Numbered from the stretch's first letter, positions 30,841 to 47,163 are shown. The stretch is 64,000 nt of DNA from a phage (GCA_026110335.1 GCA_026110335.1_3055.1), one strand, 5' to 3'. Notes: generated by a model not told the origin, from the sequence alone. A program made the numbers and translations.

Positions 30841-31260
30841 TTATTCCTTAAAGTGAGCTTTCAACATCTGATACAAGGACCATGCCTGTTCATTATTTTC
30901 AATAATAACTTCCATGACAGGAAATTCGGCGAAATCTTCTATTTGTTCTTGCTCTTCCTGCTCTTGCTCTTCAGCTGCCTGATATGGATTTTCCACTTCA
31001 TCAAAGAACCCAGCTTCGTTAGTAGAGAGCCAGATAAAGTTTTCGTCAAGGATATCACCACCGGCACAACGTTTGAGCACACCTATGGATGTCATAATTT
31101 TAGTAGGACGCCCAAGATAATCAGCATCTAAAATTTTAAAAGGCTCCATACCTAAACGCCGCGCATAGATTCCGTTATCAGTATGGTCTTTAATAAAAGA
31201 CTCTTGAGCTTGTTTATTTTTAAATTGATACCATTTATTAACTTCAAATTTAATAGCCAT
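30841..31260 (-). CDS. hypothetical acidic protein (goF-like position)
   Basis: 139 aa; acidic '[13 protein letters not shown]' stretch. Confidence 0.5.
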
Positions 31261-40725: not shown

Positions 40726-40733
40726 TATTTATA
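40726..40733 (-). promoter_or_regulatory. late promoter for soc
   Basis: TATAAATA on minus strand 32 nt upstream of soc ATG. Confidence 0.65.
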
Positions 40734-42206: not shown

Positions 42207-42407
42207 ATGGTACAAAAATTAATGGCACTTGTTAATGCCATAAAAGGTAATAAGAAACGTATAGCTTTTACTATTTCTGCTATGATAGGAATTTTACTTT
42301 GGAATTTTGTTTTATCGCCAGTTGCTATTGCTCATGGCGTTAGTATTCCAGTAGTTACTCTTGATACATTCGTAGATTTAGCATTTGCTTTAGTTGGGTT
42401 AATTTAA
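42207..42407 (+). CDS. hypothetical two-TM membrane micro-protein, plus strand
   Basis: 66 aa; AAGGAGG SD 4 nt before ATG; two hydrophobic helices; stop overlaps the gene 61 stop convergently. Confidence 0.5.
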   Translation: MVQKLMALVNAIKGNKKRIAFTISAMIGILLWNFVLSPVAIAHGVSIPVVTLDTFVDLAFALVGLI

Positions 42408-43432
42408 ATCTTAGCATATTTAGATAGCCGCATTTTAGCCATCAACCCCTGGGCAATATTATTTTTCATATATTCCATAATTTGTTCAGGGGTTGCACCT
42501 TCCTTTCTAATCATATCATTAACATCTTTTGATTTCCAGGGAGATTTATCCCAAAACATAACCCTTTCTCCTGCATCAACTAATTTAGTCATTCGCTTAA
42601 TAGTGTCAGGGTGACGAGGTTCATTATCTAAAACCCACACTCGTTTATCTTTAAATGGAACAACTTCTAGGTCTAATTGACCACCCGTAATAGCTATACC
42701 ATTTTCAATAAAAAGTGAATCTATAGGTCCTTCTAGAACATATACATCACCATCTTTAACTCGTTCAACCCCGTAAATTTTTGTTGCCTCAGGATAAGCT
42801 TTGATGGTGATATATTTTTGGGGAGCATCTTTCTTTAATGCACGCCCTTGAAACGACTCGGCTTTTCCATTAGCATTATAAATTGGAATAACAAGACGAG
42901 GCTCAGGTATTTCCTTTTTATATGTTCCCGGTGCTATGCTATTAACTAATTTAGGCCATTCAGTTGTAAACCAAAGATATTTCCATTTATCCTTTGGAAT
43001 ACAACGAGCTTTTATATATTTTATAATTGCATGGTCTTCCGCCAGTTTATCTAATCTAACACATGACGGAAGAGATTTAATTATTTTCTTCTCAGGTTGT
43101 TTAGGAAGTTCTTTAGGTTTTTCTACTGGACGACTTTTACATTTTTCTTTTCTTATTTCAAAGATATACTCACGATATAAATCAGGTTCAAACTCCTTTA
43201 AATATATTCCGATTGGTGCATGATAGTTACAGTTATAACAATGAATATTTCCTTCATTATTATCGCCGTAATACCATCCACGGGCTTTATTTTGGTCGGT
43301 TTTTGAATCTCCACAGACAGGGCATCTAAACCGTAATTTAAAAGTTGAACTATTATTTACTTGTGTGAATTTAGGTAAATGAGCTAATGCACGATACGCA
43401 AACTCATTATCAATCCAAGGTATTGATGACAT
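42404..43432 (-). CDS. 61: DNA primase gp61
   Basis: 342 aa; zinc ribbon 'CPVCGDS...CYNC'; matches T4 gp61 as recalled. Confidence 0.9.
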   Translation of the reverse strand: MSSIPWIDNEFAYRALAHLPKFTQVNNSSTFKLRFRCPVCGDSKTDQNKARGWYYGDNNEGNIHCYNCNYHAPIGIYLKEFEPDLYREYIFEIRKEKCKSRPVEKPKELPKQPEKKIIKSLPSCVRLDKLAEDHAIIKYIKARCIPKDKWKYLWFTTEWPKLVNSIAPGTYKKEIPEPRLVIPIYNANGKAESFQGRALKKDAPQKYITIKAYPEATKIYGVERVKDGDVYVLEGPIDSLFIENGIAITGGQLDLEVVPFKDKRVWVLDNEPRHPDTIKRMTKLVDAGERVMFWDKSPWKSKDVNDMIRKEGATPEQIMEYMKNNIAQGLMAKMRLSKYAKI

Positions 43433-43435
43433 TCT

Positions 43436-43600
43436 TTACTCTTCTTTTTCTTTAGATTCCTCTTTTTTCTTTTTAGGAATCTGTTCAGGACCTTTATTTA
43501 CTACAGCGCCTGACGTTGTTCCAGTAGAGATATTTTCAGGATTACAACCTGAATCTCCAGCTACCATATCTTCTTTGATAAATTCTTTATATGTTTTCAT
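43436..43600 (-). CDS. hypothetical 54-aa protein (61.1-like position)
   Basis: ATG with GAGG SD; Lys/Glu-rich C-terminus; below track cutoff. Confidence 0.4.
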   Translation of the reverse strand: MKTYKEFIKEDMVAGDSGCNPENISTGTTSGAVVNKGPEQIPKKKKEESKEKEE

Positions 43601-43601
43601 A

Positions 43602-44228
43602 TTAACCTCTATTCATAAAAGCATTAAAAATTTGGTCATCAATAGAAACATTTACTTTAGACTGTTTTTCAGATGGCAATTCATATCCACATATTACAAT
43701 TTTATGATCAATATCAAAATACACAGAAGCAATATGATTAATGATATTTTCAGTGAAGTCTAAATCAACATCAATGTCTTTTTGACCAAAACCCAAAGGA
43801 TAAATAATGCGAGTAATTCGATTATCTTTAACAAAGATTCCACCGACATACTCTGTGCTGCGTTTAAAGTCTACACGCCGACGAAATGAAAAATATTCAG
43901 GCTCTTTATGAGCTCGGCTCATAGGGCACAACGAATAACTAGAATAAGAGATGTCAAATCCTACGCCTTCAATATGAACTAAATTGTCATGATTAAACCA
44001 ATTATAATCATATGCCAAGTCCATTAGATTGTCATATGTGAAAGGCACCGGATTAACATCATTGGTCACAAGCATATAATTAGCAACTGCTATAATTTCA
44101 TTATTTTTAACGAAAACAAACCGTGATTGATGCGAATGACCTGGACCTGTGTTTTCACGATTAATGATATAACACTGGGCACCTTTATATTTGTACGTGT
44201 CTTTACACTTGTGCATTTGATAAAGCAT
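43602..44228 (-). CDS. hypothetical protein (61.2-like position)
   Basis: 208 aa; 'ENTGPGHSHQSRF' His-containing motif. Confidence 0.5.
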   Translation of the reverse strand: MLYQMHKCKDTYKYKGAQCYIINRENTGPGHSHQSRFVFVKNNEIIAVANYMLVTNDVNPVPFTYDNLMDLAYDYNWFNHDNLVHIEGVGFDISYSSYSLCPMSRAHKEPEYFSFRRRVDFKRSTEYVGGIFVKDNRITRIIYPLGFGQKDIDVDLDFTENIINHIASVYFDIDHKIVICGYELPSEKQSKVNVSIDDQIFNAFMNRG

Positions 44229-44521
44229 TATTCACCTACCACTTCAGCGATGATATTTTTATTATTGAAGTTTTTATCACAATACAGAACATAATTATAC
44301 TGCATTACACCGCCAGACTTAAGCTGTTTTTGCACTTCAGCTTTCATTTCAGGACGATCGCGCTCAACGATATTCATAATATCCGCTTCAATTTGAGTTT
44401 CAACCTCAGTCTGATCTGCAGTCATAGACCATTCGCACAAATCTTTATCATAATCTGCCATAGCAGGCTGAGCAGCGCAAGAAGCTAAAGCAAAAATTGT
44501 AGCAAAGATAAATTTTTTCAT
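44228..44521 (-). CDS. sp: Spackle periplasmic protein
   Basis: 97 aa; signal peptide 'MKKFIFATIFALASCAAQPAMA'; size and position as recalled for T4 Sp. Confidence 0.65.
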   Translation of the reverse strand: MKKFIFATIFALASCAAQPAMADYDKDLCEWSMTADQTEVETQIEADIMNIVERDRPEMKAEVQKQLKSGGVMQYNYVLYCDKNFNNKNIIAEVVGE

Positions 44522-44578
44522 GATAATCTCCTCAGTAGTTTATGTTTATATAGTATCTCAATTTCTAACAAAAGTAAA

Positions 44579-44833
44579 CTATTTTATTTCCTCAAGTTCG
44601 TTAATCAATAAAAGTTCTCTGACGCTAAAAACAAAGAAAAATGTGTTCCCATCAACCAGAGCATGACCGCTAATAGAACACCCTCTGCGGAATTTAGAAA
44701 CTTCACAATCTAGAACTGTAAAGGGTTTTAATCCTATGACTTTAGCTGTGCGTCTATTCAGTTCACAACCACTTGCGAATTTTTCCAAATCTTCTTCTGA
44801 TTTAAACTGATATTCTCTATTAACTAGCATCAT
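44579..44833 (-). CDS. hypothetical protein (61.4-like position)
   Basis: 84 aa; own early promoter. Confidence 0.5.
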   Translation of the reverse strand: MMLVNREYQFKSEEDLEKFASGCELNRRTAKVIGLKPFTVLDCEVSKFRRGCSISGHALVDGNTFFFVFSVRELLLINELEEIK

Positions 44834-44896
44834 TTTCTTTTCTCCACGATTAGCTGATAGAATTACTATAACACAACTCTATCAGCTTGTAAACTA

Positions 44897-45139
44897 CTAT
44901 TTTACTAGCATCAATAACTGTTTCTCTAACTTGACTATTTTACGAAAGTATCTTTTGCATTGACGAATCTGTCGCTTCGTAGGGCGCACAGCAAACTTAA
45001 TAAATTCCACTCGACCAAATGGAGGGCTTTCTTCTGCTGGAATATCTAACACCAATTCCCACGTATCTGCAATAAGTGCTTTGAATTGAGTATTTTTCCT
45101 GATGTTATACGGTGTAGGTTTAAATAAAACAATATGCAT
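44897..45139 (-). CDS. hypothetical basic protein
   Basis: 80 aa from 'MHIVLFKP' (GAGGATAAT-ATG); basic C-terminus 'RPTKRQIRQCKRYFRKIVK'. Confidence 0.45.
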   Translation of the reverse strand: MHIVLFKPTPYNIRKNTQFKALIADTWELVLDIPAEESPPFGRVEFIKFAVRPTKRQIRQCKRYFRKIVKLEKQLLMLVK

Positions 45140-45140
45140 A

Positions 45141-45323
45141 TTATCCTCGGCAATCCACTTCACATACTTTCTTGTCATCAATGAAAGCTTTAACTAATGC
45201 TTTATTAACTTCAGCATATTGAGTAGTAGCCCATTGAACGTCATCTTTCATCATTGTGATTTCTTTAGTAAACATGCTTTCATTCTTAAACCACCCCATA
45301 AAAACTACCTTTACCAATTCCAT
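45141..45323 (-). CDS. dmd: Dmd, discriminator of mRNA degradation (antitoxin against RnlA/LsoA)
   Basis: 60 aa; 'MELVKVVFMGWFKNESMFTKEI' matches T4 Dmd as recalled. Confidence 0.75.
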   Translation of the reverse strand: MELVKVVFMGWFKNESMFTKEITMMKDDVQWATTQYAEVNKALVKAFIDDKKVCEVDCRG

Positions 45324-45381
45324 AAAAATCTCCTCATTTAACCAACAAGACTACTATACCATAGTCTTGTCAGCTTGTAAA

Positions 45382-46809
45382 CTAAAATTTTAATTCATTC
45401 GCCAAAGCATCTAACTGAGCTCGAGTGGATTCATTTCTTTGATAGCGATTCTGTTCAGCCTGAATCTGCTGTGAACCTGCTACTTCACTCACTCCAGTTG
45501 GAGTAGAATCTTGTTCAATTTCTACCCATTTCTGATTTCCTTTTTGAACACCCATCAAAAACTTATTCCATTTGTTCTTATCACCATATCGTGATTTGAT
45601 TTGCTTAATGAGCTGTTGTTCAGCCGCTGCTAACTCTTCAGTTTCAATGACCGCAAGCATAAAATCAGCTGTTGCTGGAAGACCAGCGGATTCTGCAATA
45701 TCGCTCATGTTAACATCGGAAGAGTCCCAAGCTTGTTTACCAACCTGTGCTGCAGTCCAAAGAACAGTTTCGGTTTCAACAGCCAGAGCACGCAACTCCT
45801 CTGCAATAGCTTTAACAGTTGTGTAACTATTTTCTGAATAAACTCTAATGCGGCAAGATTTACAAATACCTAGATAGTCGACAATAATGATTGTTGGAAC
45901 AAAATTCTTCTTGAGCTTCAATTCGTTTAAAAGAGATCGAAATGTATTAGCATCTGCTCCACCAGTGGGATATTGCTTAACGATTAAACGACCGAGAGTA
46001 GATTTCTCACGCCATTTTTCCATTTTTCCTTTATACTCAGCGTAAGAAATATGTCCATCATCAATGTCATCAAGAGAAACATCAAGCATATTAGCGTCAA
46101 TACGCTTAGCACAGACTTCTTCTGCCATTTCCATGGAGATATAAAGAACGTTATGACCAAGCTGCAAATAATCTGCTGCTAATGAACACAATCCTAATGA
46201 CTTACCAACGTTAACACCAGCCATTAAAACGTTCAGTGTTCCAGTCTCAGCTCCGCCTTTAGTAATTTTGTTTAGAATTCTGAGTTTAAATGGAACCTTA
46301 CGAGCTTTATTCATATAAGATAGCCAACGTGCTTCGTAGTCATCCATCCAATCATGACCAACGTAGCTATCAAATGAAATTGATAATGCTTGACGCATAA
46401 TGTCAGGAATAGCACCAACATCCGGCATTTTCTTATTTCGTTTTTCCGGAGGAAGCTCAGCATTAGTTTGAATTTCGATTATTTTAGACGTAGCATTAAA
46501 CATCGCCCTTTGCTGAACATATTTTTCTGTTTCTTTTACTAACCAGCTGTGGTCTTCCGGAGAATCAGCTAGTTTTGAAATAAGTGTTTTTACACCAGAA
46601 TATTCTGTTTCAGTAAATGAACTATTTTCTAATGCAACATTTAACGCATTAATAGATGGAACGCTATGATACTCATTGACATGAGATTTAATTAATTTGA
46701 ATGTATTTTTAGCTGGACCACTTTCAAAATATTCTGAATCCATATATGGCCAAACTTTTGAAAAATAAGCTTGATCAAATATGAGATGAGAAAGAATAAT
46801 TTCTACCAC
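45382..46809 (-). CDS. 41: replicative DNA helicase gp41
   Basis: 475 aa; GTG start with AAGGAG SD; Walker A 'GVNVGKS'. Confidence 0.9.
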   Translation of the reverse strand: MVEIILSHLIFDQAYFSKVWPYMDSEYFESGPAKNTFKLIKSHVNEYHSVPSINALNVALENSSFTETEYSGVKTLISKLADSPEDHSWLVKETEKYVQQRAMFNATSKIIEIQTNAELPPEKRNKKMPDVGAIPDIMRQALSISFDSYVGHDWMDDYEARWLSYMNKARKVPFKLRILNKITKGGAETGTLNVLMAGVNVGKSLGLCSLAADYLQLGHNVLYISMEMAEEVCAKRIDANMLDVSLDDIDDGHISYAEYKGKMEKWREKSTLGRLIVKQYPTGGADANTFRSLLNELKLKKNFVPTIIIVDYLGICKSCRIRVYSENSYTTVKAIAEELRALAVETETVLWTAAQVGKQAWDSSDVNMSDIAESAGLPATADFMLAVIETEELAAAEQQLIKQIKSRYGDKNKWNKFLMGVQKGNQKWVEIEQDSTPTGVSEVAGSQQIQAEQNRYQRNESTRAQLDALANELKF

Positions 46810-46818
46810 ACTTACTCC

Positions 46819-47163
46819 TTAAAAGAATTTAAATTTTTTCTTTGACCTTTTATTAAATGCATCTTGCAGTTGCATTGTAATACATTTTTCTACATGAGGA
46901 GCTAACTCAGCTTTTCTTTCTTGGTCAAGAACAGCAAAGTCCATTACGACTTTTCCATCAACCCAATCTAATTTTGTCACATACACAATGTGTGTAGAAC
47001 CATCTTCTAGTTTAATGACAATCTCCTGGATAACATTTTCCATGGCAGATTTAATTATCTTAAGAGACTCATTAAAAAGACGTTCTTTTCTTTCTTCTTC
47101 CCCCTCCGAAGAGGGGGATTCATCGATAATTTCTAGATCTAAGTCTAAATCATCTTTATTCAT
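46819..47163 (-). CDS. 40: gp40 head assembly protein (candidate)
   Basis: 114 aa from ATG at 47163 (GGAAG SD); position between 41 and uvsX. Confidence 0.6.
   Translation of the reverse strand: MNKDDLDLDLEIIDESPSSEGEEERKERLFNESLKIIKSAMENVIQEIVIKLEDGSTHIVYVTKLDWVDGKVVMDFAVLDQERKAELAPHVEKCITMQLQDAFNKRSKKKFKFF

Follow-up and report, generated by a model that had tools for sequence, protein, structure and literature searches.

The interval from 43436 to 45323 of a 64,000-nt stretch of phage DNA (GCA_026110335.1; the whole stretch is hereafter called the window) is the hyperplastic segment that separates helicase gene 41 from primase gene 61 in a T4-type phage, a locus already described in print as a probable "anti-TA island" (TA, toxin-antitoxin). 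The gene identities and the cassette architecture assigned to this locus here, on the basis of sequence comparison, are in all likelihood correct. The main claim that can be made for the region, that of a counter-defence locus, is already known, and the new remainder is modest. It consists of a gene for a predicted GoF-type beta-barrel protein that appears to be borne on a promoter-early stem-loop (PeSL) cassette, and of capsid-protein signatures in the small protein gp61.1.

An earlier note on this DNA had recognized a counter-defence neighbourhood between the helicase and primase genes, and had stated that the equivalent T4 locus is reported to carry additional inhibitors of toxin-antitoxin systems. 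The general idea is correct but was already in print: Srikant et al. (2022, eLife, PMC9391042) named the region a possible "anti-TA island" with dmd, tifA (61.4), and adfA (61.2), and considered its remaining genes attractive anti-toxin candidates. Related sources on the T4 island are LeRoux et al. 2022 (as cited in PMC9391042) and Guegler et al. (2024, NAR, PMC10853763). The six open reading frames (ORFs) that the note described are all present on the minus strand at the positions it gave, and its names Sp and Dmd are borne out by Pfam matches and by full or near identity to the T4 proteins. Its description of the other four as unassigned holds only in part. Comparison with T4 genes 61.1-61.4, a check that the note had proposed, equates the 208-aa ORF with gp61.2 (AdfA), the 80-aa ORF with gp61.4 (TifA), and the 54-aa ORF with gp61.1, whereas the 84-aa ORF is absent from T4; only the 54-aa and 84-aa ORFs are without a Pfam or NCBIfam assignment. 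The functions of the T4 orthologs AdfA and TifA are related to the proposed role, not foreign to it. The genes of the locus and its flanks are as follows.

42404-43432, minus strand: primase gp61 (gene 61), flank
43436-43600, minus strand: gene 61.1, 54 aa; leader like a capsid-targeting sequence (CTS), followed by an I-x-E cleavage motif of the gp21 type, a segment resembling the gp23 N-fist, and a tail rich in Lys and Glu
43602-44228, minus strand: adfA (gene 61.2), 208 aa, with GPGHSHQ; Pfam AdfA PF23813
44228-44521, minus strand: sp (spackle); Pfam T4_Spackle PF25676
44579-44833, minus strand: 84-aa ORF; phrog_2980, homology to the GoF N-terminus
44897-45139, minus strand: tifA (gene 61.4), 80 aa, basic; Pfam DUF7279
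45141-45323, minus strand: dmd (gene 61.5); Pfam Dmd PF17587
45382-46809, minus strand: helicase gp41 (gene 41), flank

The phage is a Tequatrovirus. Over the interval and its flanks, its DNA shares 94-97% identity with numerous genomes of that genus, including vB_EcoM_G2540-3, REP4, G28, and Shfl2 (~97% for G2540-3, REP4, and Shfl2), and 631 phage records match the locus. The six ORFs, like all convincing ORFs here, lie on the minus strand, and the order of transcription is gene 41, dmd, 80-aa ORF, 84-aa ORF, sp, 208-aa ORF, 54-aa ORF, and gene 61. None of these is a chance ORF, as each either has a curated family match or recurs in phage records numbering from 84 to more than 1,300 (1,369 for gp61.1, 641 for TifA, 487 for AdfA, and 84 for the 84-aa ORF).

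The island of T4 has this gene order too, between the flanking genes 41 and 61, and in both phages dmd and tifA stand under one early promoter. The difference lies between tifA and sp. The two sequences are collinear as far as codon 75 of tifA, after which T4 has 37 nt and the window has a cassette of ~343 nt, with an extra promoter and the 84-aa ORF, before collinearity resumes at the sp promoter. At both ends of the replaced segment stands the sequence TAG(TAG)TTTAC, in which a stop codon is fused to the -35 element of an early promoter. By this alignment, the 84-aa ORF is an accessory gene absent from T4. Its protein occurs in 84 phage records, comprising 71 near-identical copies in Tequatroviruses (~11% of the phages that share the locus) and 13 orthologs that are ~57% identical, with Gaprivervirus SP18 among those listed. 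The SP18 ortholog (57% identity) occupies the same 41-61 interval but another position, directly after gene 41. In a collection of 5.8 billion proteins, close relatives form only five clusters. One of these, from metagenomic relatives, is a truncated 54-aa allele (P0005, three member sequences) with the divergent end ...KFHRGCFY, which suggests that the gene is decaying in some phages.

The earlier note had stated that three of the four unassigned ORFs have their own early promoters. Three early-promoter-like sites do exist, one each before dmd, before the 84-aa ORF, and before sp, so that only the 84-aa ORF among the four has its own. These sites, and the element that surrounds the second of them, are listed below.

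44550-44578, minus strand: weaker early-promoter-like site before sp, TTTACT-17-TACTAT, read by eye
44838-44910, minus strand: PeSL-like element with the tifA stop codon, an early promoter, and a 13-bp stem (scan, inverted repeat, and fold); left end of the cassette absent from T4, where the alignment with T4 breaks
44865-44893, minus strand: early promoter of the 84-aa ORF, extended -10 with TG, 10/12 consensus matches (scan)
45353-45381, minus strand: early promoter of dmd-tifA, TTTACA-17-TATAGT with TG, 10/12 consensus matches (scan)

The promoter of the 84-aa ORF is embedded in a stem whose 13-bp arms (44852-44864 and 44875-44887) form an inverted repeat with 92% complementarity, and the fold is significantly stable (z = -4.4; none of 200 shuffled sequences folds as well). 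The dmd promoter overlaps the stop codon of gene 41 and likewise lies inside a stem-loop (DNA fold of 45326-45398, z = -2.7). These two promoter elements are 70% identical over 64 nt and are 488 nt apart. The site before sp overlaps the stop codon of the 84-aa ORF, falls below the scanner's threshold of 9/12, and is the same in T4 save for one base; the fold test found no significant stem-loop there. In T4-like phages, PeSL cassettes are known to mediate gene shuffling within hyperplastic regions (Comeau et al. 2014, PMC4122927; Arbiol et al. 2010, PMC2839356). The element upstream of the 84-aa ORF resembles them in having an early promoter within a stable stem-loop immediately after the preceding stop codon, and promoter sequences flank the segment in which the window and T4 differ, as they are described to do where PeSL elements mediate shuffling. 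The likeness is one of described architecture, and the third promoter, that of sp, stands apart from it in having no significant stem-loop.

Judged by homology and by its predicted fold, the protein encoded by the 84-aa ORF is a free-standing homolog of GoF's small N-terminal beta-barrel (LSm/SH3-like). It has no match in Pfam, NCBIfam, or PADLOC, and it matches phrog_2980 ("goF mRNA metabolism modulator") with an E-value of 3e-20. The window encodes a GoF of its own (139 aa, 30841-31260, next to gene 39), and residues 4-44 of the 84-aa protein align with residues 7-47 of this GoF at 37% identity over 41 residues (BLASTP, E 3e-8), with weaker similarity beyond this stretch, as far as the N-terminal domain of GoF reaches. 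GoF itself has an N-terminal barrel, a linker, and a C-terminal domain. Because the 84-aa ORF ends with the first of these and so lacks the two-domain architecture, it is not GoF. It also differs from GoF in lying in the 41-61 island rather than beside gene 39, and in being an accessory gene with 84 records, whereas GoF is conserved throughout the Tevenvirinae (PMC12152347).

Structure prediction, which the earlier note had recommended, was run on the 84-aa ORF and gave a small barrel with two inserted helices. When viral models were searched with Foldseek, the prediction matched the SP18-type ortholog, T4 MotB.1 (P39415), and many uncharacterised T4-like proteins, and its neighbours in the PDB are SH3-like domains of the FeoA and IdeR type. 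GoF and MotB.1, along with Frd.2, have been described as a Tevenvirinae family with an LSm-like fold, for which the same FeoA/IdeR-type SH3-like fold class was reported (Kim et al. 2025, PMC12152347). With this family the 84-aa protein shares N-terminal homology, and the model, which is of moderate confidence, gives it a small, bent beta-sheet barrel. It would be the first stand-alone member of the GoF-type barrels, and thereby a simple handle on the function of the fold. Public records carry misleading labels for this ORF, either "goF mRNA metabolism modulator" or "ComC-alpha", and the former overstates the known facts.

The fold family, the early promoter, the accessory distribution, and the neighbouring genes together make it the likeliest reading, at about even odds, that the target of the 84-aa protein is RNA or a host factor that cleaves RNA. 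Several points count against such a role. The AlphaFold2 model is of moderate confidence (predicted local distance difference test score, pLDDT, 70; predicted template modelling score 0.56) and derives from an alignment of 26 sequences. Only the mutant GoF(D25Y) is known to stabilise an mRNA, and wild-type GoF is without demonstrated RNA activity (PMC12152347); the residue of the 84-aa protein that aligns with D25 is Gly, as counted manually on the alignment. In addition, the existence of the truncated 54-aa allele implies that the gene is dispensable in some phages. A more specific proposal, that the protein inhibits a host RNase toxin or a defence nuclease by direct binding, which would make it the third such anti-TA factor beside Dmd and TifA, seems rather unlikely. 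The protein has no sequence similarity to an antitoxin or to a defence component (none in PADLOC), and its paralogs GoF and MotB.1 have so far no defence-related phenotype. Its position in the island is circumstantial, given that RB69 has imm and imm.1 there too. The gene is a concrete candidate that could be tested at little cost, with three toxin-neutralising neighbours in the island.

The view taken in the earlier note, that all four ORFs are uncharacterised and that each is a fresh candidate for inhibiting a TA system, is improbable as a whole. Anti-TA genes do concentrate in this locus, the other genes there have been proposed as candidates (PMC9391042), and neither gp61.1 nor the 84-aa protein has been assigned by Pfam or NCBIfam. 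But two of the four are the characterised anti-toxin proteins AdfA and TifA, and the 84-aa ORF is left as a legitimate candidate, whereas gp61.1 is a poor one. It occurs in ~1,150 records, in genera whose hosts include Escherichia, Klebsiella, Acinetobacter, and Aeromonas. Counter-defence genes that are host-specific are less widespread (AdfA 487, 84-aa ORF 84). In addition, gp61.1 bears capsid-protein signatures. A PADLOC scan for ORFs of the island that mimic an antitoxin or defence component gave nothing meaningful; its sole match, between AdfA and a Cas13 C-terminal model (E 0.014), was dismissed as noise.

A tblastn search with gp61.1 recovered 1,369 phage records, of which 1,149 show at least 60% identity, from phages of Escherichia, Klebsiella, Acinetobacter, Aeromonas, Enterobacter, and other hosts. 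Because so many Straboviridae records (~1,150) carry it, the 6-kDa gp61.1 is not a host-specific accessory gene, and as early as 2006 it was listed among the few conserved ORFs of divergent T4-like genomes to which no function had been assigned (PMC1524935). Searches of Pfam and NCBIfam returned nothing for it. One of the tblastn matches fell inside a major capsid protein gene, and residues 2-38 of gp61.1 align without gaps to residues 57-93 of T4 gp23 at 43% identity (BLASTP, pairwise E 3e-9). A hidden Markov model built from 27 members of the gp61.1 family and run against 1,352 ORFs detected T4 gp23 (E 4.7e-13) and its Pseudotevenvirus counterpart (8e-15), with the next match at E 0.1. Across the whole PDB, gp23 chains were the sole significant matches of the gp61.1 profile (E 4e-9; gp23 58-100, with residues 3-35 of the mature protein).

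The gp23-like segment spans the site at which gp21 matures gp23 (LTE/AEIGG; here and below, a slash within a peptide marks the actual or proposed cut) and the 25-residue N-fist of mature gp23*, a structure that touches four adjacent subunits and forms part of the site where Soc binds (PMC9958956). In the alignment with gp23 (structures 5VF3, 6UZC, and 7VS5), L-T-E/A of gp23 stands opposite I-K-E/D of gp61.1, and the first ~28 residues of gp23* are covered. Unlike gp23, gp61.1 has no HK97-fold body, and it carries a Lys-rich tail after Gly-Pro where gp23 has its N-arm. The signatures of the two proteins are distinct, MVAGDSGG in gp61.1 and EIGGDHGY in gp23, which argues for an old paralogy and not for recent copying. 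Recent gene conversion between 61.1 and gene 23 was considered and rejected, since the two signatures stay separate, lineage by lineage, even in distant phages. Several public records label gp61.1 "major capsid (domain-containing) protein", which is misleading.

Among 25 divergent homologs, the core (D/E/A)MVAGD(S/A)GG.P.NIA.G.TSG.V.N.GP is near-invariant and is followed by a Lys-rich tail. What precedes the core falls into two forms. Short-form homologs have leaders of the type MK(T/S)F.(E/D)(F/L), whereas long-form homologs (125-165 aa, phrog_2086) have an N-terminal domain of 70-115 aa in place of the short leader; for this domain, Pfam and PHROGs yielded only the uncharacterised families phrog_2086 and phrog_18642. 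In most of the 25, short and long forms alike, [LIVF]-x-E stands directly before (D/E/A)MVAGD. RB69 apparently has a long form split by a frameshift into ORF032c (63 aa) and the annotated 92-aa gp61.1 (locus L010, 3318-3784); ORF032c matches the long-form N-terminal part up to ...PEEK and then diverges. Codon 19 of gene 61.1 (43544-43546) specifies Cys in the window (GDSGCNP) and Gly in T4, Shfl2, and vB_EcoM_P8, in a column (GD[SA]GG) that is at least 90% conserved, and the Cys may be either a real variant or a sequencing error. A protein of 4,358 aa (P0127) with eight stretches that match gp61.1 was set aside as a probable compositional artefact: it is repetitive and rich in S, V, and G, has a hydrophobic N-terminal leader, and contains no match to a loose regular expression for the N-fist.

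The leader of gp61.1 reads MKTYKEFIKE/D in the window and MKTFKEFIKE/D in T4. The T4 internal proteins IPII and IPIII begin with MKTYQEFIAE/A, and IPI begins with MKTFKEFTSTTTPVSTITE/A. The sequence MKTYQEFIAE is the CTS, which when fused to foreign proteins suffices to load them into the T4 head, where gp21 then removes it (PMC8442874, PMC9026906). Mutational work has placed its determinants at positions 4 and 7 for targeting and at positions 8 and 10 for processing (reviewed in PMC9026906), and gp61.1 matches the CTS at all four (Y/F, F, I, and E; in the window Y4, F7, I8, and E10). When the window and T4 loci (~160 kb of non-redundant T4-type DNA) were searched in six frames with a CTS regular expression, only IPII, IPIII, and gp61.1 were found. 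The likeness to the internal proteins includes Glu at the P1 position, and MKTFKEF of T4 gp61.1 equals residues 1-7 of IPI. The differences are that the mature part of gp61.1 would be no longer than 44 residues and, in T4-type phages, lacks a basic character, that gp61.1 is conserved throughout the family whereas the internal proteins are poorly conserved, that in many genera the 70-115-aa N-terminal domain replaces the leader, and that no late promoter lies near gp61.1.

These features are consistent with gp61.1 being a fourth head protein of the CTS type, packaged and then cleaved by gp21, a proposal that is made tentatively and that we would place somewhat short of even chances. The CTS-like leader would target gp61.1 to the prohead core, where gp21 would cut after Glu10 and release a 44-residue peptide resembling the N-fist of mature gp23. 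In the more distant Straboviridae, the propeptide of 70-115 aa might do the job of the 10-residue leader. The released peptide could fill N-fist sites that lack one (for example by the gp24 vertices), act during maturation on the core or on the protease, or enter the next host. If the proposal is true, the T4 head has an additional, family-wide component that has been missed for decades, and the observation joins three elements, the CTS, the maturation site of gp23, and the N-fist, into a single ancestral module. Against it stand three points. The late promoter TATAAATA is absent from 43300-45500, the nearest copy being at 40726-40733, so that gp61.1 would have to persist from early synthesis. 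The peptide of T4-type gp61.1, not being basic, is unlike the internal proteins. Finally, a literature search that included a review of the T4 head, and that covered no virion proteome, found no report connecting gp61.1 with the CTS, gp21, or the virion proteome.

Two other explanations share part of this evidence. A packaged and cleaved gp61.1 might be injected with the DNA as an anti-defence peptide, as is IPI*, the blocker of GmrSD, or might serve as a decoy for host sensors of the major capsid protein. Such a role would account for a leader like those of IPI, IPII, and IPIII and for the mimicry of a gp23 segment, and there is precedent in IPI, an anti-restriction protein that is injected, and in the view of the CTS as a means by which T4-like phages load diverse proteins (PMC9958956, PMC9026906). 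It is nonetheless unlikely. The core of the peptide is near-invariant across very distant hosts, whereas internal proteins are poorly conserved, and such conservation makes a phage-internal partner likelier and leaves gp61.1 the weakest of the anti-defence candidates put forward by the earlier note. The homology to gp23 also stops at about gp23 residue 93-100, before the conserved RRAIPNLIAFDICGVQPM block, which corresponds to the Lit-activating Gol region. A role for gp61.1 as a Lit/Gol decoy is unsupported, with the homology ending where it does. Still less probable is an accessory role in replication, in which gp61.1 would assist the primase and its resemblance to gp23 and the CTS would be a functionless relic. 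The gene does lie 3 nt upstream of gene 61 in T4-type phages, it is near the primase gene in Acinetobacter phage DLP2 with only a homing endonuclease between them, and its early transcription and the absence of a local late promoter would suit such a function. But conservation within the family coincides exactly with the gp23-like segment and the cleavage motif, the CTS determinants are kept at all four positions, and no similarity to any replication protein was found.

The remaining genes of the island are those with published functions. The 60 residues of Dmd are all identical to those of T4 Dmd (Pfam Dmd PF17587, E 1.6e-46, 156.9 bits), an antitoxin-like inhibitor of the RNase toxins RnlA and LsoA (PMC9391042). 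The 80-aa ORF matches Pfam DUF7279 (71.6 bits against a cut-off of 24.5, E 5e-20), its residues 1-74 are identical to those of T4 gp61.4 save for V13I (73/74), and by this homology it is TifA. Gene 61.4 was renamed tifA; its product is a protein inhibitor of the endoribonuclease ToxN, and it is co-transcribed with dmd from a promoter upstream of dmd (PMC9391042); in the window, tifA likewise starts 1 nt past the dmd stop codon with no promoter between. TifA binds both RNA and ToxN, trapping the toxin in a ribonucleoprotein complex (PMC10853763), and this RNA binding explains the Arg/Lys-rich C-terminal half of the 80-aa ORF. Residues K55, R56, and R59, which were mutated to abolish RNA binding by TifA (PMC10853763), are invariant across the window, T4, and RB69. 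An alternative TTG start that would extend tifA to 94 aa, overlapping dmd, was rejected as an ORF-calling artefact, as T4 TifA starts at MHIV. In record PV390659.2, TifA bears the misleading label "DNA polymerase".

The last six residues of TifA differ from those of T4 (QLLMLVK versus QFVTCDYAEILK), a change brought about by the cassette that T4 lacks. The swapped tail should not matter, since RB69 TifA, with 70 aa, is fully active without this variable tail. Residue 41 is Phe in the window, as in T4, and His in RB69, and Phe41 marks the weaker, T4-type allele (PMC10853763). The E. coli toxIN system restricts T4 until the phage has amplified tifA (PMC9391042), and by analogy this phage probably behaves toward toxIN as T4 does and escapes in the same manner. 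Given its T4-like alleles, it would also be expected to resist DarTG1 and RnlAB as T4 does. TifA homologs are known to differ in specificity, and some are inactive (PMC10853763).

The 208-aa ORF is identified by homology as AdfA, anti-DarT factor A. It matches Pfam PF23813 over residues 1-208 (profile positions 1-211) with an E-value of 1e-136 and 453.5 bits (cut-off 27), and 206 of its 208 residues (99%) are identical to T4 gp61.2, an inhibitor of DarT toxins whose gene was renamed adfA (PMC9391042). The GPGHSHQ motif that the earlier note had singled out is indeed present, but it is not conserved in RB69 AdfA. In RB69, AdfA gains DarT1 binding through R164H, and His at this position is the functional allele (PMC11257639). 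His165 of the window (...ENIINHIASVY...) aligns with Arg164 of RB69 (...ENNINRIASVY...), and the window therefore has what is, by this alignment, the DarT1-binding His allele. Sp, which starts the same group of genes, is assigned by its family to the periplasmic superinfection-exclusion proteins (Pfam T4_Spackle PF25676, E 1.4e-44, 151 bits) and shares 95 of 97 residues with T4 Sp, leaving two differences.

Some caution applies to the counter-defence reading of these genes. For Dmd, TifA, and AdfA, the activities are those published for orthologs with 93-100% identity, and for the proteins of this phage they are predictions. The weak Phe41 allele of TifA, together with the restriction of T4 by toxIN, means that the counter-defence activity of these alleles may be marginal against the systems tested. 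Deletion of adfA from T4, moreover, gave no phenotype on DarTG1 (PMC11257639).

The layout of promoters and genes suggests that the interval would be read as three leftward early transcription units. From the dmd promoter would come dmd and tifA, with Dmd expected to block RnlA and LsoA by binding and TifA to trap ToxN in an inactive ribonucleoprotein complex. The promoter and stem-loop cassette that T4 lacks would express the 84-aa protein alone. The weaker third promoter would serve sp, adfA, 61.1, and 61, whose products would include Sp, to exclude superinfecting phage, and AdfA, to bind DarT ADP-ribosyltransferase toxins. This last group is tightly packed: the start of adfA overlaps the stop codon of sp, 61.1 begins 1 nt past the adfA stop, and gene 61 begins 3 nt past the stop of 61.1. 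No intrinsic terminator was found in the island, and an Rfam scan of 42300-46900 with E-values up to 0.1 returned no RNA family.

The 41-61 interval is very plastic among related phages. RB69 has the superinfection immunity genes imm and imm.1 between sp and tifA, and two more ORFs after gene 41 (locus L010, 5012-5690), while SP18 has two other uncharacterised ORFs between its GoF-like gene and dmd (locus L004, 3328-4016). Beyond the primase gene, a 66-aa hydrophobic ORF lies on the plus strand (42207-42407) between dam and gene 61, and a hypothetical protein is encoded at the same position in Shfl2, P8, and RB69. Some relatives have an extra 118-aa ORF of the "RB51 ORF33c" type between 61.1 and adfA, including Shfl2 (L002, 1802-2158) and SP18 (L004, 5016-5375), and this ORF is absent from the window. 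Its sequence is paralogous to AdfA's C-terminal half, with 35% identity over 103 aa (E 2e-9) and a shared IDDQIFNAFMNRG end.

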